Position numbers: made by a program | Shown here: in pieces, positions 21,901 through 45,900 of the stretch | Layout: each line of letters opens with the position of its first letter | Position numbering within the stretch: the stretch's first letter is position 1 | Origin: an uncultured Gemmatimonadales bacterium | GTDB taxonomy: Bacteria > Gemmatimonadota > Gemmatimonadetes > Gemmatimonadales > GWC2-71-9 | Direction: 5' to 3' | Assembly: GCA_963825055.1 (NCBI GenBank) | Contig: CAWGSK010000012.1 | Location: 1 to 64,000, forward strand | Length of the DNA: 64,000 nucleotides

Positions 21901-24900
21901 GCGTGCGGCTCAAGGCGAGCTATGACATCTCCGGCTTCCCTCCACAGGCGCAGGTGATTCTAGAGGCGCTGAAGACCTACGGGATGCTCGTGGCGGACAA
22001 CGGCAGCAACTGGTACATCTCCGGCGCACCCGATCCCCGCTGGGAGGACACCCAGCTGAACACGCTGAAGAGCGTGCCCGGCAGTGCCTTCGAGGTGGTG
22101 AAGATGGAAAACATTCAGGTGGGTCCGTAACGACCGTCCAACCGGGTGCCGACTGCCGACTCCCTATTCCCTGTTTCCTGTCGTCTGCTCCCCCTTATTC
22201 CCCCCGCGGTATCGCCTGCCCATGGCATGCGGTGCACATCTCCGGATTCTTGCGCAGGAGCCGCTCGGGGTCGAAGCCCGGGCCATGCGGGTTGAACCGA
22301 CGTCCGCCCTGCGCCGAATGGCAGGTCAGGCAGTCGCGCTCGGCGTGGCAGGAGGCGCATGTCTCGAGGCTCTGGCGCGCCGCCTGGCCATGTCCGACCA
22401 GGAAGGCCCGCTGGCCGTCATGGAAGCCCGGCCGGAGCGGCCCGCTGGCGACCAGGCCCGCCTGGGCGTGGCACGAGGCGCAGAAGGCGCTCGGGTTGTG
22501 GCAGGTGGAGCAGTCGGATTCGCGCGCCCAGGCCGCGGCGGGGTGGCGGGAGAGGAACGCGGGCGGGTGATACCCCTGCGATGCGGCGGCCTCCGGCTTG
22601 TGGCAGTCGAGGCATTCCGCGCGCGCATGACACGTGGCGCACGTGTTCGGGGACGCGGTGGCGACCGGTGCGTGGGTTTGGGTGAAGTCGGCGCCATGGG
22701 ACGGAGGACGCCGGCGCGTGATCTGCGCCCCGATCGCCCGGCCCGGTCCCGCCGGGTGCATCGCCAGGACGGGCTCCGGCCTCCCCGCATGACAGGCAAG
22801 GCAGCTCTCGCGGGTGTGGCAGGTGGCGCAGGTCTCCGGGGTGGTACGGGCGGTGCGGCCATGTGTCGTGAGGAACCCGGGAGCCTGGTGAGAGGCCGGT
22901 GACTTGAGCTCTGCCTTGATAGCGAGGCTCCTCGGGTCGGCGGCCAGCGCCTGGATCACCGGAACCTCCGGCGCATCCACGTGACAGCTCAGGCAGAAGT
23001 CACGGGCGTGGCATGTCGCGCATGACGGGGCCACCTCGAAAGTCCTCCGTCCCTTCACGACGGGCTGCGCCAGTCGGCCGTGCCCTTCCATCGCGAAGCC
23101 GGGCCGGTCGTGTGACGGCGGTGCCTCGATCAAGGTGACCGTCTCGCGCGTCAGTGTCGAACGGGCCAGGGACACGTGGCATGTGGCGCAGGCGGTGTCC
23201 GGTGCGGCCTGATGGGCGCTCTCCACGCCGTGACAGTCAAGACACTGGCCGGTCACCGACCGCCGCACGTTCATCCACCCTGCACCCGTGGCAATGTGGC
23301 AGGCGGTGCAGTCGAGGGTGGAATCCGCGTGCTCCTGGCCGAACTTTCGGGCGTGCTCGGGATGTGTGAAGCGCAGGTTGGTCGGATGCGGCGTGGAAGG
23401 CGGCGTCCAGTCCACCCGGTCCTCAGTGGTTCCGTCGTGGCAGTCCGCGCAGGTGGTGACGGCAGGCCAGATCGGTCCCCCTTCCTCCACGGCCCCGACG
23501 TGGCACGTCTGGCAGAGTGGAAAGACCTCGGCGTGTTTCCGGTGATCGAACGTGTCTTCCCGCGACCGGACCGCGAGCCCCGCAATGCCCGCCAGGACCA
23601 GGGCTGCCGCCATCAGGGACCCGGCGCGCGGCGTCACGATCCCGCCCTGGGCCGGCGAACGGCCGGCGGCAGCCGGAAGCGGTCGGCTCCCGAGTCCAGG
23701 TACAGCGTCACCCGCGCGTTCAGCCGCCACTGATTCCAGTCCAGCGATCCCGCATCGGCGCGGTTGCGGTCCTCCTCGGCCCGCGCGACCCCGGCCGAGA
23801 GCCGGAGTCGCTCCAGCGGGCTGTAGGAAGCGTCCAGGCCGTAGTAGCGGACCTCGGCATCGCTGAATCGGAACTCCAGGGGCCGGTTCAGAGTGCTGCC
23901 GAATGCCGTCACCGAGATCCGCCGCTCGGGCGTGAAGGTCACCGAGCCGTCGTATCCGCGCGAGGAGGCCCCCGGTCCGAACTCGGCATGGTAGCCGGCG
24001 TCCACGCTCCATTGTGGCGACACGGTCCACGTCCCGCCGAACGAGACCCGCCAGCCGCGGTCCTCCGCGCTCACCAGCGGCGTGGACGTCTCGGTGTTCT
24101 GGAACCAGTAGCGCTCGCCACGGACCCGGACCTGCACCTGCGGCACCGGGCGGACCCAGGCGGCCCCCTCCATCGCATTGTAGGGGACCGGGCTGAACGC
24201 GCCCCAGATGGTCCACAGGTCGAAATGCGGCCGGTACCGGCGGTATCCGCCCAGCACGGTCACGAGTTGCGAGGTGTAACGCAGGCTTGCGTCCGCGCTC
24301 CCCCACCAGCCTTGCGCCATGTCATACTCCGCGCCACCCACCAGCGACCAGCGCGGGATCGGGTGGACATCGGCATTGAACGCTGCCCGCTCCGAGACGA
24401 AATAGTCGGACCGGGGGTCCACCTCACGCTCGTAATCGACACGGGTGTCGAACCAGGGCGTGGTCCAGCCGACGTGGCCCCCGGCCGTCACTTGGCGCCG
24501 ATCGGGACGGTAGTCGTCCAGCGGATTGAGCGCGGGGCTGGTGATCGGCAGGACCGAGGCCTGGCCAAGTCCCCAGCCGGCATACGCACCGGCCTCGAGT
24601 CCCCAGGCTGGTCGTCGCACGATGGCCGCGCCTCCGTCGAACACCGTCACGCCGAGTCTGCTGGCGGCGACCTGGCGTCCGGCGCGGACCGTAAAGCGCT
24701 CCGCGGCATACTCGGCGTAGGCCTCCACCAGTTGCACGGCGGGGTCGGTCCCCGGCCAGACGTCTGAATCACCAAGGTCCACGCCCAGGCGGGTGTTGAG
24801 ACGGAAGCTGAGTCCCGTGACGCCGAATCCCCACATGGTCAGGTCGGCGGAGGTGACGAGCGGCCCGCCACGACGTTCCGGGCCGGGCCGGAAGAAGTGG

Positions 24901-42900: not shown

Positions 42901-45900
42901 GGGGCCAGGCCCTCATCGCGCTCAAGGAGATCGAGTTCGACCGCGAAACGGGCAAGCTCTCGGACGAAGACTACGAGATGCTGAAGGCCCGGTACACCGC
43001 CCGGGCCCTCCAGGCGATCCGGGAGGAGCCCGGAGCCGCCGGACCGGCAGCCGCTCCCGCGCCCTCCGGAGCTACTGCCGGGGCCGAGGTGGCGGCGGTC
43101 TGCCCGAATTGCGGCCCGCGACCCGAAGAGGACGCCGCCTTCTGCTCTTCGTGCGGCACCCGTCTTTCCACCGGTCGCGATTGCCGCGGCTGCGGAGCCG
43201 CCGTGTCGCCCGACGCCAGCTTCTGCGAGGCCTGCGGGCAACCTGTGGCGGCCTGAGCCGGCGCTTCAGGCAGGGGAACGGCAGGTGTCAGGGGCCGGGG
43301 AGCAATCCCCGGCCCTGCGTGCGTCAGTGCATCGTGAGCGTGAGCCACCCGTTCGTCACGCTGTCCTGCCCCTTCACGATCCAGTTGGCGCCGGCATGGT
43401 ACTCGCCCGCGACGACGTCCTCGATGGCATTGCCGATCAGGTCATCATCACTGTGCAGGAATGAGGCGAGTGCCCGGATCAGCCGGAGTATGGCCGGTGC
43501 CGCCTTCCAGACCCGCTTGAGCCCCTGTTCGGACGAGGAGCCGCCCGAGAGGTCGCGGAGGAGCCCCGGGAGGGAGCCGACGAGCTCGGTGAACTCGTCC
43601 GGTTCCACCTTGATCTCGCACGGTGTGTCATCGTCTTCCACGGCGAAGACCCGCAGGCTCTTGCCGGGGTGCTCGATCTGGTACGTGTCGATCTGCCCCT
43701 GGGTGAAAAGGAGCACGTTGCCGGTCCAGTCCAGACTGTTCTGGTCATACGTGTACGGACCGCTCGCCTTTTCGCCCGCGCACTGCCAGGTGCGGAGCGA
43801 GTCGGTGTCGCCTGACTGGCCGAGGATGTGGATCTCGAACTCGGGATTGCCGCGAAGCCACCCCTCGAACGTCTGCACGAAATGCGCGCTCGTCATGTAC
43901 AGTCCCGGCGTCGGGCTCGTTACCGGCGGCTTGACGCCGCCGCCTCCCCCACCGCTGCCGCCGCCGGATCCGTCCCCGTCGCAGGTATCAAGGGTACAGG
44001 TGGCCCGGGCAGGCCCGGCATCGAAATCCGTCTCCACCGGAACGAGGGCGATCACGGGTGTATCGGGCGGCCGGAGCGGGTCGAGCAGCATGCGGGTGCC
44101 GCGGGTGTCAAACGCAACCGGCACGTCCCCGTCTCGCAGGGCCGTCGCGACGAGCACGTCCGGACCTCCGTCCCATCGGGCACGGTGGGCGGGGACGGGG
44201 AGATAGAGTTCCAGCGGTGTGGTGGCGCGCGCGAGCGCCTGGACACTCAACTCGGGAGCACCGCTCGCCCGGGCGATGCTGCGTGTCGCGCCGGTGGCCG
44301 GGGAGGCCAGGTAGCGCTGGAAGTGGAGCTTGTGCTCGCGGATGGGCGAGGCGTCCAGACTCCGCCTGAGGGACGAGCGGAACTCCGGCTGGCCCAGGGC
44401 GATGGCGGTCTGCCGTGCGAGGGCCTCCATGTTGGCGGCCTGGGCCCGTGCCGCGGGGGATGGGGCTGGGCGCGCCGCGCGGGACGGGCCGGTGAGGGAA
44501 CTTGGCGCCTGGGGCAGTTCGCGGTCCGTGCAGGCGAGTGCGGCCACCCCGAACAGCAGGACCAGGAACTTGGAGGAACAGGACATGACGCCTCCTTGGC
44601 GTTGGTGTGGGCGCCAAGGTAGGACGCGAAGGGGCGCGTGCCGTGACCGGGGAAGCGCGGGCGGGGGGCGAAAAAGCAGTGACTGGTGATTGGTGACTAG
44701 TGATTGGTGCTTGGGCGGTGAGTATCTTCGCGACTGCCGACTGCCGACTGCCGACTGCCGACTGCCGACTGCCGACTGCCGACTGCCGACTGCGACTGCC
44801 GACTGCCGACTGCCGACTGCCGACTGCCGACTGCCGACACCCGACTCTCGACACCCGACTCCCGACGCCCTGTTCACTATCTTCCATCATGATTTCTCTC
44901 CCCGAACTCGAATCCTCTGCCGCCTTCATTCACGAAATCATCGGCTCCACGCCGCAGTACGACTGGCCGCTCCTGGCGGAACGGTGTGGGTGCGAGGTGT
45001 GGGTGAAGCACGAGAACTACACTCCCATCGGGGCGTTCAAGGTCCGGGGAGGCCTGGTCTACCTCGACGCCCTCATGCGACAGGGCGGGGCCGCGGGCGT
45101 TATCACCGCGACCAGGGGGAACCACGGGCAGAGTATCGGGTATGCCGCCCGCCGCCTCGGCCTCCGCGTGGTGATGGTGGTGCCGCACGGCAACAGTATG
45201 GAGAAGAACGCCGCCATGCGGGCGCTCGGGGTCGAGCTGGTGGAGGAGGGGCACGATTTCCAGGCGGCCGCGGAGCACGCGCGCGAGCAGGCCCGCGAGG
45301 AGGGGTTGCACCTTATCCCGTCGTTCCATCCGTTGCTGGTGCGCGGCGTGGCGAGCTATGCGCTGGAGTTCTTTCGCGGGGCTCCGGAACTCGACACGGT
45401 GTACGTGCCGGTCGGTATGGGGTCGGGGATCTGCGGGGTGATCGCCGCCCGCAACGCCCTGGGCCTGGAAACGCGGATCGTCGGGGTGGTGGCGGCCCAG
45501 GCTCCCGCCTACGCCATCAGCTTCCGGAACCGCGAGCTCTTCTCCACGACCACGGCCGACACCATGGCGGATGGCCTCGCCTGCCGCGTGCCCGACCCGG
45601 AGGCGTTCGCGGTGATCCTGCACGGGGTGGAGCGGATGGTGACCGTGTCGGACGACGACATCATGCGTGCCATGCGGATTTACCTCACGGACACGCACAA
45701 CGTGGCGGAGGGGGCCGGAGCAGCACCGCTGGCCGCACTGCTCGGCGAGCGAACCCGCATGCGGGGCCGGCGCGTGGGCGTGGTGCTCTCCGGGGGGAAC
45801 GTGGACCGCTCGGTCTATGCCGACATCCTCGCGCCCGCCGGGAGTTGATCAGGGCCGGATGATGAGGGCCGTCCGCCCGATGCCGAAGTTGGCCCGCGCC

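Follow-up and report, generated by a model that had tools for sequence, protein, structure and literature searches.

The window, by which we mean the whole 64-kb stretch of DNA analysed, contains a minus-strand cytochrome operon (cluster 1) that is transcribed divergently from a plus-strand [NiFe] hydrogenase operon. Cluster 1 encodes a lipoprotein multihaem cytochrome with eight CxxCH and one Cx4CH motifs (27084..28662; g01255 plus an upstream piece), an 18-haem cytochrome whose motifs and TM segments predict an inner-membrane anchor (cyt18, g01254; 25127..27070, start tentative), a haem-free 498-aa protein modelled by AlphaFold2 as an outer-membrane beta-barrel of about 22 strands (g01253; 23634..25130) and a 16-haem periplasmic cytochrome with 16 CxxCH motifs and a Sec-type signal peptide (cyt16, g01252; 22195..23637). 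Overlapping stop and start codons couple cyt18 to the barrel gene (ATGA) and the TGA stop of the barrel gene to the GTG start of cyt16 (GTGA). A six-frame scan of the window placed 42 of the 47 CxxCH sites in the three minus-strand cytochrome genes. The minus-strand ORFs at 22195-24306, 23634-25172, 25127-27070 and 27084-28565 carry 16, 0, 18 and 7 CxxCH motifs, the last two also having two and one Cx4CH motifs, and one more CxxCH, at 28488, falls in the upstream reading frame of g01255. Eight ORFs with at least four motifs were found genome-wide by a stop-to-stop scan: three in cluster 1, a pair with 17 and 19 motifs (C12:126603-129627) together with its near-identical counterpart pair on C24, and an ORF with five motifs on C2. 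This recount bears out the motif numbers of the first-pass annotation, which were 16, 18 and 7 in cluster 1 and 17 and 19 in a second cluster.

The plus-strand operon starts with the small subunit gene hupS (28991..30151; TIGR00391, 449 bits), followed by hupL for the large subunit of a group 1 [NiFe] hydrogenase (30154..31866; PF00374, 772 bits) and a cytochrome b subunit that links the enzyme to the quinone pool (31863..32612; PF01292 Ni_hydr_CYTB, 101.9 bits). Maturation genes for the hycI/hupD protease, hypA, hypB, hypF, hypC, hypD and hypE occupy 32533..38818 on the same strand, with approximate ORF starts (Pfam HycI, HypA, cobW/HypB, HypF domains, HupF_HypC, HypD and AIRS/AIRS_C). The genes ccmE, ccmF and ccmH, flanked by two zinc-ribbon protein genes, complete the plus-strand series (38508..43256; Pfam DZR, CcmE, CcmF_C and CcmH). 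Pfam and NCBIfam identities agree with the gene order, hupSL-cytb-hyp and ccmEFH, described before. The genome has one copy of hupL, and only one ccmF, the System I haem lyase gene, was detected in it; in a related genome (G043), the cytochrome cluster is immediately preceded by ccmB, ccmC, ccmF and a zinc-ribbon protein gene. The HupS protein carries the Tat motif SRRDFL and a C-terminal membrane anchor (TM segment 335-353). Its best alignments are with HoxK variants, with ECTGC and WGNIQ against ECTCC and WGCVQ in the other HoxK chains of that comparison. The proximal-cluster cysteines are standard and both extra cysteines of the O2-tolerant HoxK chains compared are absent, which fits use under anoxia. 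The closest solved relative of HupL is 3myr_B (784 bits), whereas Hyd-1/MBH, Desulfovibrio and Hyd-2 types score 605-691, 564-588 and 537-558 bits. The intergenic region between the two operons (28663..28990) holds an element of about 40 nt around GTTACAA, common to four of the five genomes with the divergent layout and found upstream of neither gene in ten other layouts. GC-rich hairpins precede the hupS ribosome-binding site, and neither a sigma-54 consensus nor an Rfam family was found in this region.

The lipoprotein gene is split in the window by a single extra base near 28398. As annotated, g01255 (27084-28433) is a truncated call; the lipoprotein N-terminus, at 28410-28662, is encoded in a different frame and contributes an additional CxxCH. 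In run X1, a Logan contig (record 2, 28290-28453, depth 15) has one base fewer at 28398. Removal of this base yields a stop-free protein of 525 aa with eight CxxCH, one Cx4CH and a lipobox cysteine, 57% identical to its G043 orthologue over 505 aa. The orthologues are encoded in a single frame (483-570 aa), and 12 of 13 calls have eight CxxCH. The family profile matches the surface reductases 6qvm (8e-17) and OcwA (6i5b, 2.3e-16) before MtrA (6r2q_A, 4.4e-9). What was taken for an MtrA-like 7-haem protein is a lipoprotein that resembles OcwA and 6qvm and has 8+1 haem sites, its call cut short by the frameshift. The available part of PMC6703420 characterises OcwA as a cell-surface terminal reductase, and by its sequence the lipoprotein is a candidate outer-face or surface reductase.

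In cyt18, two N-terminal TM helices (44-62 and 82-100) and a NapC/NirT/NrfH-like first haem region are followed by a long c3/c7-type haem chain, comprising in total 18 CxxCH and two Cx4CH motifs, the first motif being CxxCHxM. Residues 85-144 match TIGR03153 NrfH at E 1.6e-7, with 31.5 bits against a family cut-off of 134.2. Seven of eight full orthologues have 18 motifs and one has 17. We regard cyt18 as a candidate quinol dehydrogenase. The cyt16 protein has a single N-terminal hydrophobic segment (residues 5-23), and its 16 motifs and 15 additional His are invariant over 14 orthologues, of which 13 have 16 motifs and one has 18. It matches Pfam Cytochrome_C7, Mtrc-MtrF_II-IV_dom and Paired_CXXCH_1.

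The barrel g01253 has no Pfam or NCBIfam family, and its family profile finds no PDB sequence match at E<=10. Its AlphaFold2 model has 22 strands (pLDDT 77.5), and the matches listed by Foldseek and VIA are all outer-membrane or similar membrane beta-barrels, among them porins, ushers, TonB-dependent receptors, MtrB and SlpA (best Z 19.2). At least 1467 homologues occur in metagenomes, those with names being Gemmatimonadales, and the Atlas clusters, none of them named, are mostly from Gemmatimonadota. The barrel of the second cluster, g01368, is also modelled with 22 strands, preceded by a small N-terminal beta domain (pLDDT 79.7), and its top structural matches are ushers and porins. The models thus uphold the earlier judgement that both haem-free proteins of about 500 aa are outer-membrane barrels. 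The aromatic C-terminus ascribed to both is present in g01368 and absent from g01253, where a conserved, low-confidence, proline/arginine-rich tail follows the last strand. Complex prediction of g01253 with cyt16 gave a score of 0.58 (runs 0.63, 0.58 and 0.37; best of three controls 0.00), with at least 6% of contacts agreeing and a partner pLDDT of at least 66. Of 157 solved complexes, 116 reach the mark for this score, as do 2 of 215 mismatched pairs; passing scores of 0.60 or below come from only 18 of the 157 solved complexes and from both passing mismatches. The prediction weakly suggests a complex, and by analogy the cytochrome may thread through the barrel.

The second cluster (C12:125652-132488) lies outside the window and contains the 17- and 19-haem cytochromes and g01368; contig C24 carries a second copy of C12:105938-135279 at 95.6-99.4% identity. 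Here a membrane-tethered NAD(P)H-type FeS-flavoprotein and a dihaem-b-like membrane protein would feed the cytochromes and the second barrel, an arrangement that fits the predicted PCC3 type, whereas the entry module of cluster 1 is a NapC/NrfH-like membrane cytochrome. The two sets were first taken for old paralogues with cytochromes 25-33% identical between them. That range was found instead between both cytochromes inside cluster 2; between clusters the identity is 22-33% over partial stretches (best E ~1e-10), the barrels reach an hhalign probability of 2.6%, and the entry modules differ. Cluster 2 is a separate conduit, unrelated to cluster 1. The reading of both as porin-cytochrome conduits stands, each combining giant multihaem cytochromes with a modelled barrel and a module for entry at the inner membrane.

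The hydrogenase and the barrel were followed through 401 Gemmatimonadota genomes, with HupL called at E<=1e-150; related genomes are non-independent samples for such co-occurrence counts. The barrel is present in 179 genomes and HupL in 105. By raw counts over related genomes, the barrel occurs in 101 of the 105 HupL genomes and in 78 of 296 without this HupL; the corresponding numbers are 73/73 and 45/94 in family f1, and 16/19 and 9/74 in family f2. HupL and barrel lie within 25 kb (2.8-24 kb) in 42 of the 47 genomes with measurable distance, covering families f1, f2, f4, f6 and f9, and three more linked genomes were found in a sample of 61 relatives. The linkage is not chance, contrary to the caution first attached to the adjacency. 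Linkage is not universal, since the genes are 78 kb to 2.4 Mb apart in the other five genomes (G194, G407, G153, G257 and G286) and on different contigs in 54, including assemblies of only 8-30 contigs (G089, G336, G327, G340 and G197). The layouts vary: the genes are divergent at about 5 kb, share a strand at 3-4 kb, or are 11-24 kb apart with insertions such as a V-type ATPase, so the linkage has outlived rearrangement. The 78 barrel genomes without this hydrogenase indicate that the conduit does not need H2. In G032, the genes accompanying those for the lipoprotein, barrel and cyt16 encode a Rieske-like protein, a cytochrome b, more multihaem cytochromes and a NapC-like cytochrome, implying that the outer-membrane module is served by differing quinol-oxidising modules.

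On balance we lean towards cluster 1 being a four-part conduit from the quinone pool to the cell exterior, fed with electrons from H2 by the adjoining hydrogenase and serving insoluble or large acceptors. The divergent, Tat-exported hydrogenase of O2-sensitive type would reduce quinone with H2 through its cytochrome b. The NapC/NrfH-like head of cyt18, anchored in the inner membrane, would oxidise the quinol, and its haem chain would pass electrons to secreted cyt16, threaded into or docked on the barrel. The nonahaem lipoprotein on the outer membrane would then act as terminal reductase for Fe(III)/Mn(IV) minerals and humics. With the hydrogenase supplying the conduit's quinol, H2 oxidation and the conduit would constitute one respiratory chain. 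We infer from the genes that cyt16 occupies the barrel and that the lipoprotein is surface-exposed; outward flow, the acceptor and the entry of hydrogenase electrons into this conduit are likewise presumed. The position of cluster 1 beside the hydrogenase, and its near-constant company with it across the phylum, suggest H2-driven mineral or humic reduction by this soil lineage, and the earlier term "hydrogen-oxidising metal reducer" would express the same expectation. A quinone-coupled hydrogenase can serve any reductase, which counts against the preferred reading.

The direction cannot be read from the sequence, and the conduit could run inward from extracellular donors (Fe(II), Fe(0), reduced humics or a partner cell) to the quinone pool or an oxidase, with H2 and a solid donor as a pair of lithotrophic inputs encoded on the same island. 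We consider this unlikely: two donor systems need no linkage, whereas donor and acceptor branches of one chain do, and genomes with the hydrogenase very seldom lack the conduit. Fe(II)-to-quinone electron flow is energetically uphill, and OcwA, the characterised protein closest to the lipoprotein, is a terminal reductase. Inward flow is made conceivable by the NapC/CymA-type partners in porin-cytochrome sets proposed for Fe(II) oxidisers, and by PCC3 and PCC4 modelled as donor-to-quinone paths, in the accessible portion of PMC5566968; the excerpt of a marine Gemmatimonadota paper notes that annotation cannot separate iron reduction from oxidation (PMC11316326). We give little credence to the lipoprotein being a periplasmic NrfA/octahaem-type enzyme that reduces nitrite, hydroxylamine, sulfite or tetrathionate, with NrfH-like cyt18 as its quinol dehydrogenase and the barrel merely admitting substrate. 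A soluble substrate is possible since OcwA-family proteins slowly reduce nitrite and hydroxylamine (PMC6703420, in part), and the lipoprotein profile also matches cytochrome c554, hydroxylamine oxidoreductase and octahaem nitrite reductases (E 2e-4 to 8e-4). These matches are far weaker than those to OcwA and 6qvm, a motif scan found no CxxCK, and the conserved, translationally coupled cyt16 and barrel would be left unexplained, as would 18 haems on the membrane partner.

Direct periplasmic transfer from the hydrogenase to cyt16, bypassing the quinone pool as in Desulfovibrio hydrogenases with cytochrome c3 and the 16-haem HmcA, seems quite improbable. The tight gene linkage, a weak NCBIfam HmcA match and profile matches of cyt16 to the 16-haem high-molecular-weight cytochrome c 2e84 (4e-11) and the "sixteen heme cytochrome" 1z1n (5e-7) speak for it; the likeness is limited to one c3-like module (positions 40-161 only), and the operon's own cytochrome b and the membrane-anchored HupS are hallmarks of quinone reduction. 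We are similarly doubtful that hydrogenase, conduit, ccm and sometimes a V-type ATPase merely share an "anaerobic energy" island through joint inheritance or transfer and co-regulation by anoxia. Both gene sets could simply follow an anaerobic lifestyle, G032 has a V/A-type ATPase and a universal stress protein between hydrogenase and conduit, and the 78 barrel genomes without the hydrogenase point the same way, as does the fact that the co-occurrence counts are raw ones over related genomes. Against this, linkage is kept in five families and at least three layouts, and the conduit stays with the hydrogenase in 101 of 105 genomes, including 16 of 19 in f2, a family in which few other genomes have the barrel (9 of 74).

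The MtrB barrel has 26 strands. The barrel g01253 differs in having about 22 and shows no sequence relation to MtrB/PioB, a further point against the preferred reading. Metagenome papers suggest that Gemmatimonadota carry Hya-type hydrogenases and genes for iron cycling, and cluster 1 and its hydrogenase link are not described in the available parts of these sources (PMC11316326, PMC4411801). The present analysis places two distinct outer-membrane haem-protein "wire" gene sets in one soil Gemmatimonadota genome and adds, as new, the phylum-wide co-occurrence and linkage of hydrogenase and barrel.

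Four tightly packed genes occupy positions 22195-28662 of the minus strand. In gene order they encode a lipoprotein cytochrome (annotated in part as g01255, ORF 27084-28565, seven CxxCH motifs), an 18-haem cytochrome (cyt18, g01254, 25127-27070), a haem-free barrel protein (g01253, ORF 23634-25172, no CxxCH) and a 16-haem cytochrome (cyt16, g01252, ORF 22195-24306). The stop codon of cyt18 overlaps the start of the barrel gene (ATGA), and the barrel stop overlaps the GTG start of cyt16 (GTGA). The first-pass annotation had counted seven, 18, none and 16 motifs in these proteins, and the ORF motif count reproduced these numbers exactly. 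A total of 47 CxxCH sites were found in the six frames of the 64-kb window; 42 of them lie inside this cluster (cluster 1), and a further one is found a little upstream in a different frame. Scanned from stop to stop, the whole genome yielded only eight ORFs with at least four CxxCH, namely three of cluster 1, a pair with 17 and 19 motifs in a second cluster (cluster 2), a pair on contig C24 that is nearly identical to it, and a single ORF with five motifs. Both clusters noticed earlier are real. On the plus strand, hupS, hupL, the Ni_hydr_CYTB cytochrome b, a HycI-type protease and hypA, B, F, C, D and E were confirmed by Pfam and NCBIfam. The hyp genes are followed by genes for a zinc-ribbon protein, CcmE, CcmF, CcmH and a second zinc-ribbon protein (Pfam), and hupL and ccmF are present in one copy each in the genome. 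Elsewhere in the window, two serine/threonine kinase and PD40 beta-propeller proteins form a pair with 69% identity (18416-21016 and 12489-15080), and five further matches to them cluster on contig C23 of the same genome.

The lipoprotein cytochrome gene is misannotated in g01255. An N-terminus with the lipobox LAGC and one more CxxCH was found at 28410-28662 in a frame different from that of the seven-motif ORF, and both parts are in one frame in relatives, where 12 of 13 orthologue calls are 483-570 aa long with eight CxxCH. A Logan contig from the public sequencing run X1 spans 28290-28453 at depth 15 and has one base fewer at 28398, with no other difference. This run contains 0.81 of the sampled words and may be the source sample of the genome itself, so that it represents an independent assembly and not an independent sample; runs X2, X21 and X3 have no coverage of 28398. 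Removal of the extra base gives an uninterrupted protein of 525 aa with eight CxxCH, one Cx4CH and the lipobox Cys at residue 23, which shares 57% identity over 505 residues with the orthologue in genome G043. A pseudogene reading of g01255 was set aside because the public contig does not have the extra base; an assembly or polishing error at 28398 is the likeliest explanation, and the gene is probably intact. The lipoprotein gene of another genome, G016, also looks interrupted (L016:11387-12037 and 10391-11329, the N-terminal ORF having 216 aa and one CxxCH). Such a GC-rich gene may easily suffer assembly errors; alternatively, it may be undergoing decay in some lineages.

The profile built from 13 orthologues of this lipoprotein matches the solved structures 6qvm (8e-17, aligned 93-373) and 6i5b (2.3e-16), then MtrA (6r2q_A, 4.4e-9), and true N-cycle enzymes only after MtrA at about 1e-4. 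A single orthologue also matches 6i5b, with an E value of 3.1e-6. The structure 6QVM is presumably OmhA of Carboxydothermus ferrireducens. The structure 6I5B is OcwA of Thermincola potens, described in PMC6703420 as a terminal reductase on the cell surface with nine haems, whose haem core is NrfA-like and whose C-terminus forms a helical bundle; it also reduces nitrite and hydroxylamine slowly. According to PMC7829351, OcwA groups with nonahaems of Gram-negative bacteria that are themselves uncharacterised. Profile comparison shows homology of the lipoprotein cytochrome to OcwA/OmhA-type reductases over the haem core. Nine candidate haem sites (eight CxxCH and one Cx4CH) are found in the read-through protein and its orthologues alike, and the non-haem C-terminal part aligns to OcwA and 6QVM at low score only, with a GVHN-type motif in common. 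The MtrA/DmsE model TIGR03508 scores 48.4 bits, below its cut-off of 192.2, and the MtrC/MtrF II/IV model PF22113 scores 29.7 bits, just below its cut-off of 30; MtrC chains are matched only weakly by the profile (E 0.0045-0.0052). The protein had been described as MtrA-like with seven haems, a description that gives way to 8+1 haem motifs and to 6qvm and OcwA matches well ahead of MtrA.

The 498-aa haem-free protein g01253 has no family in Pfam (E<=0.01) or NCBIfam. Its AlphaFold2 model, built with 25 homologues, shows 22 strands at a pLDDT of 77.5. The matches listed by Foldseek and VIA-align are beta-barrel proteins of the outer membrane or similar membrane barrels (OccK/OprD porins, TonB-dependent receptors, ushers, SlpA and MtrB among them), and the best of them reaches Z 19.2 with an rmsd of 5.0 over 286 residues. 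The model and these matches support the earlier proposal of an outer-membrane barrel. MtrB (6r2q_B) stands at Foldseek rank 8 with E 2.3e-8, as one among many barrels matched, and the barrel profile has no PDB sequence match at E<=10, 6r2q_B included. MtrB has 26 strands in 6R2Q. With about 22 strands, no Pfam family and no PDB sequence match, g01253 falls outside the MtrB/PioB family of porins. The aromatic C-terminus ascribed to both barrels is found in that of cluster 2, which ends in GFWYGF, and g01253 ends without an aromatic residue. After the last strand its family possesses a conserved proline/arginine-rich tail with the consensus LPPAxRxRPRAG, modelled at low confidence (window 23634-23690) and possibly a peptide at which a partner docks. 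The family has at least 1467 homologues among 8000 candidates scored, the named ones coming from Gemmatimonadales, and is unnamed in the ESM Atlas.

Two N-terminal hydrophobic helices (residues 44-62 and 82-100) precede the first CxxCH of cyt18 at residue 112, an anchor leading straight into the first haem motif as in NapC/NirT/NrfH proteins; orthologues in family f3 have one transmembrane helix only. The NrfH model TIGR03153 matches residues 85-144 over model positions 4-62 of 138, where the first motif is CxxCHxM, with a significant E of 1.6e-7 and 31.5 bits against a cut-off of 134.2. Judged by this curated score, and by 18 haem motifs in place of a tetrahaem size, cyt18 lies outside the NapC/NirT/NrfH family. 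TIGR03508 gives 21.5 bits against a cut-off of 192.2. We predict that cyt18 works like a NapC/NirT-type head fused to a long c3/c7-type chain.

Cyt16 carries a Sec-type signal with one hydrophobic segment (residues 5-23). All 16 haem motifs and 15 further His residues are invariant across 14 orthologues, and these additional His residues are enough for mostly bis-His haems. The cyt16 profile resembles 16-haem high-molecular-weight cytochromes c over one c3-like module only (2e84, 4e-11, positions 40-161). PF22113 scores 52.6 bits on cyt16, above the cut-off of 30, but this protein is no lipoprotein. When the barrel and cyt16 were co-folded, the score was 0.58 (runs 0.63, 0.58 and 0.37), with 0.00 for the best of three controls, at least 6% of contacts agreeing between runs and a partner pLDDT of at least 66. 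The mark was passed by 116 of 157 solved complexes and by two of 215 mismatches, and scores up to 0.60 comprise 18 of the 157 complexes and both of the passing mismatches. The modelling therefore lends weak support to a barrel-cyt16 complex.

Across the phylum, the barrel profile has a match in 179 of the 401 sampled genomes and in 79 of 148 genera. Among the relatives whose neighbourhoods were compared, eight genomes (G015, G016, G006, G031, G043, G038, G044 and G058) keep the order lipoprotein, cyt18, barrel and cyt16; G029 keeps it as far as the barrel gene, inside which its contig ends, so that cyt16 is out of view. A variant in G039 has two lipoprotein copies and no cyt18. In three genomes (G032, G020 and G009) lipoprotein and barrel are separated by other genes over 7 kb; the insert of G032 encodes a cytochrome b (PF00033) and a Rieske-like protein, several multihaem cytochromes (one with nine haems, one NapC-like, and one with 11 haems and an anchor at its C-terminus) and a b-type membrane protein. 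One and the same outer-membrane module is thus found with differing quinol-oxidising modules, as expected of a conduit from the quinone pool. The genes ccmB, ccmC and ccmF and a zinc-ribbon protein gene lie directly upstream of the cluster in G043, and echo those after the hyp genes in the window. In family f3 an Omp85-superfamily protein was found before the cluster (G038, L029:13-2918; G044, L030:18911-19963), together with a sigma-54 activator in G038; the former may be a dedicated barrel-assembly factor and the latter a regulator. The profile of the cluster 2 barrel also reaches 43 more genomes with partial matches of lower strength (E 1e-13 to 1e-31), often about 8-21 kb from the cluster 1 barrel (e.g., G153:C3:1478361, G419:C1:373194, G368:C13:13405 and G244:C6:102792). 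These appear to represent a third barrel family near the conduit, absent from this genome.

The hydrogenase beside cluster 1 has the composition of a group 1 membrane-bound uptake enzyme, with a Tat-signal small subunit, large subunit, cytochrome b, endopeptidase and hyp genes. HupS carries the Tat motif SRRDFL and a C-terminal anchor. The best solved relative of HupL is 3myr at 784 bits, which we take to be the membrane-bound hydrogenase of Allochromatium vinosum; Hyd-1 and MBH enzymes reach 605-691 bits, Desulfovibrio enzymes 564-588 and Hyd-2 537-558. Two supernumerary cysteines, Cys19 and Cys120 in HoxK numbering, mark the O2-tolerant [4Fe-3S] cluster. HupS aligns best to engineered HoxK variants, and reads ECTGC and WGNIQ where other HoxK chains have ECTCC (u148842) and WGCVQ (u148841). 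Both proximal-cluster cysteines of the O2-tolerant group 1d are thus missing from HupS, which indicates a standard oxygen-sensitive-type, quinone-reducing uptake enzyme. Such an enzyme fits anaerobic respiration. The Gemmatimonadota "Hya" enzyme was read as oxygen-resistant in PMC11316326; for annotation, the lesson of the two absent marker cysteines is that this label does not fit the window enzyme.

The presence of HupL (E<=1e-150) was compared with that of the barrel in the same 401 genomes. HupL was found in 105 genomes, and 101 of them also have the barrel, the exceptions being G053, G261, G386 and G070; among the 296 genomes without HupL, 78 have the barrel. In family f1 the barrel is present in all 73 HupL genomes and in 45 of 94 without HupL, and in family f2 in 16 of 19 and nine of 74, respectively. 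These counts ignore kinship, and related genomes are not independent. Barrel positions were listed for 150 matches and not for 47, and 14 genomes with a missing barrel place were searched again. Both genes are on one contig in 46 genomes, to which G009 was added, where the contig breaks inside hupL and hupS is 19 kb from the barrel. The distance between HupL and barrel is 2.8-24 kb in 42 of these 47 measurable genomes, and five are distant (G194 302 kb, G407 205 kb, G153 316 kb, G257 78 kb and G286 2.4 Mb). Linked cases come from families f1, f2, f4 (G402), f6 (G288, G296 and G410) and f9 (G249), and a 61-genome sample of relatives added three more (G006, G029 and G020). The other 54 genomes with both genes have them on different contigs, mostly in fragmented assemblies; five of them (G089, G336, G327, G340 and G197) consist of only 8-30 contigs, so some of the split cases are probably unlinked. 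The layouts vary from divergent at about 5 kb, as in the window, to the same strand at 3-4 kb (G039, G295, G234, G326, G252 and G401) and to 11-24 kb with insertions. A divergent form is also present in G035, a genome of one contig. In G032 (L021/L022, G032:C8:18000-50000) hydrogenase and cluster are set apart by genes for a universal stress protein and for subunits I, A and B of a V/A-type ATPase.

Chance adjacency, which the first-pass annotation had conceded as a possible explanation, is excluded by the distances and the 101 of 105 co-occurrences, and the link proves stronger than was claimed. The hydrogenase is almost never found without the conduit, and the conduit often occurs without the hydrogenase, which points to a functional dependence. 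A further step would be that respiratory H2 oxidation in Gemmatimonadota is wired specifically to the conduit, the hydrogenase being gained and kept only where the conduit exists; we regard this as possible but less likely than not. Co-regulation through a shared operator was considered in the divergent intergenic region. An element of about 40 nt (GTGAAG ... TAAAGTTTGTAAC ... CTCCGTA-like) surrounds GTTACAA at window 28740-28790 (read on the minus strand), some 100-135 nt before the start of the lipoprotein cytochrome. Four of five divergent-layout genomes have it in common, and neither gene is preceded by it in 10 other layouts. The element could be a promoter or operator, but its limitation to divergent layouts is too narrow to argue a shared operator. 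The five divergent intergenic regions have no match to the sigma-54 consensus, and a sigma-54 promoter was rejected, as TGGCAC in the window lacks both conservation and a following -12 element. Immediately ahead of the hupS ribosome-binding site (window 28900-28990) there are two GC-rich hairpins, conserved in the window, G016 and G029 (L016 and L018). An RNA element was rejected here, since the region before hupS has no Rfam match at E<=1 and a fold z-score of only -1.93.

Cluster 2 (C12:125652-132488), which lies beyond the window, encodes a 316-aa membrane protein, two cytochromes with 17 and 19 CxxCH that are 25-33% identical to each other, a 516-aa barrel protein (g01368) and an FeS-flavoprotein that combines a helix at its N-terminus with two 4Fe-4S motifs and the fold of pyridine-nucleotide-disulphide oxidoreductases. 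The model of the barrel has a pLDDT of 79.7 and comprises a small N-terminal beta domain and 22 strands; its structural matches are ushers and porins, and its earlier assignment to the outer membrane is likewise supported. In the membrane protein, the motif Wx3Hx13H occurs at residues 119 and 285 and SGLFG at residue 159, and the hydrophobic segments number about five (36-54, 80-98, 120-138/132-150, 144-162 and 292-310). As described by He et al. 2017 (PMC5566968), the hallmarks of the predicted PCC3 porin-cytochrome type include an inner-membrane protein of about 300 aa with five TM helices, SGxxG and two Wx3Hx13H. Compared with this published description, the 316-aa protein has the motifs of the PCC3 inner-membrane protein, and cluster 2 combines a porin with two very-many-haem cytochromes as PCC3 does. 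Likened by these described hallmarks, the two share the barrel, the two very large multihaem cytochromes and the motif-bearing membrane protein; cluster 2 differs in its occurrence in Gemmatimonadota, a name absent from the PCC3 paper (PMC5566968), and in an added FeS-flavoprotein gene, which PMC13264449 also records near some PCCs as 'ferredoxin-NADP reductase'.

The two clusters had been taken for old paralogues. Profile comparison finds their barrels unrelated (hhalign probability 2.6%), and the similarity between their cytochromes is weak and repeat-driven only; paralogy was therefore rejected. They are two kinds of system, cluster 1 being fed from quinol and cluster 2 probably from NAD(P)H. 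Close orthologues of the cluster 2 barrel (E<1e-130) are found in 15 of 401 genomes. Contig C24 (1-31955) is a copy with 95.6-99.4% identity of 29 kb of contig C12 (105938-135279), the whole of cluster 2 included. Together with a contamination estimate of 6.1%, this looks like a second strain binned in, which is the most likely origin of the copy, in preference to a true duplication.

Gemmatimonadota are among the commoner soil phyla, and their anaerobic energy metabolism is poorly known. The interpretation given in the first-pass annotation is supported in part. We infer that cluster 1 is a new form of the porin-cytochrome system, and its function, direction and acceptor are put forward in the same conditional sense. 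An unnamed barrel family with an OcwA-like lipoprotein, found in 179 of 401 genomes and a near-constant partner of a respiratory hydrogenase, would give the phylum a concrete role in soil H2 turnover coupled to iron, manganese and humic reduction. If H2 oxidation is indeed wired specifically to the conduit, members of this abundant soil and sediment phylum would use extracellular acceptors for H2 respiration (minerals of iron and manganese, humics and possibly partner cells). Their system would be made of parts unrelated to Mtr, in which an 18-haem wire with a NapC-type head is joined by a barrel of a new family and a surface lipoprotein resembling OcwA. For structural biology it would be a second, independent solution to the problem solved by MtrCAB.

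Earlier metagenome studies describe putative mtrABC in individual Gemmatimonadetes/ota bins, and Hya hydrogenases as widespread (PMC4411801, PMC11316326). In cave MAGs, PCC types lie near ferredoxin-NADP reductase or ImcH/NapC genes (PMC13264449); section 18 of that paper does not name Gemmatimonadota for them, and its figure 6 and supplements may name phyla. The portions of the literature searched gave no description of the four-gene cluster or of its hydrogenase link. DFE_0461-0465 of D. ferrophilus was rejected as a known counterpart, as this organism is described in PMC9769857 as without apparent porin-cytochrome conduits.

Cluster 1 follows the same logic as MtrCAB with CymA (Shewanella; 6R2Q) and MtoAB/PioAB, in which a NapC/NirT-type inner-membrane quinol dehydrogenase is combined with a multihaem cytochrome of the periplasm and its partner barrel in the outer membrane, and with a lipoprotein multihaem cytochrome. 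The haem counts are 4, 10 and 10 in MtrCAB with CymA and 18, 16 and 9 in cluster 1, where none of the three cytochromes is a decahaem of the MtrA/DmsE type (TIGR03508). In contrast to MtrCAB, the barrel of cluster 1 shows no sequence signal of MtrB/PioB and consists of about 22 strands, the membrane cytochrome continues into a long fused haem chain, and the lipoprotein is of the OcwA/NrfA-like lineage, not of MtrC/OmcA. With OcwA (6I5B) and 6QVM this lipoprotein shares profile homology, a size of about 525 aa and nine candidate haem sites; those proteins are Gram-positive and located on the cell wall, whereas it is a diderm lipoprotein encoded with a barrel. The Geobacter system OmaB-OmbB-OmcB with ImcH/CbcL consists of a periplasmic multihaem cytochrome, a porin-like protein of about 20 strands, a lipoprotein cytochrome and NapC-like inner-membrane cytochromes. 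Likened by description, its parts list is the same as that of cluster 1, but the NCBIfam Geobacter decahaem models score far below cut-off on cluster 1 (43.1 vs 325). Two ImcH homologues and one CbcL homologue are given for Gemmatimonadetes in PMC6295460. The hydrogenase shares with group 1 uptake hydrogenases with cytochrome b (3MYR, Hyd-1 and MBH) the Tat small subunit, large subunit, Ni_hydr_CYTB, endopeptidase and full hyp set. The O2-tolerant MBH/Hyd-1 type has two extra cysteines, both of which the window enzyme lacks, and the window enzyme is conserved beside a cytochrome conduit, an arrangement of which the literature searches gave no description.
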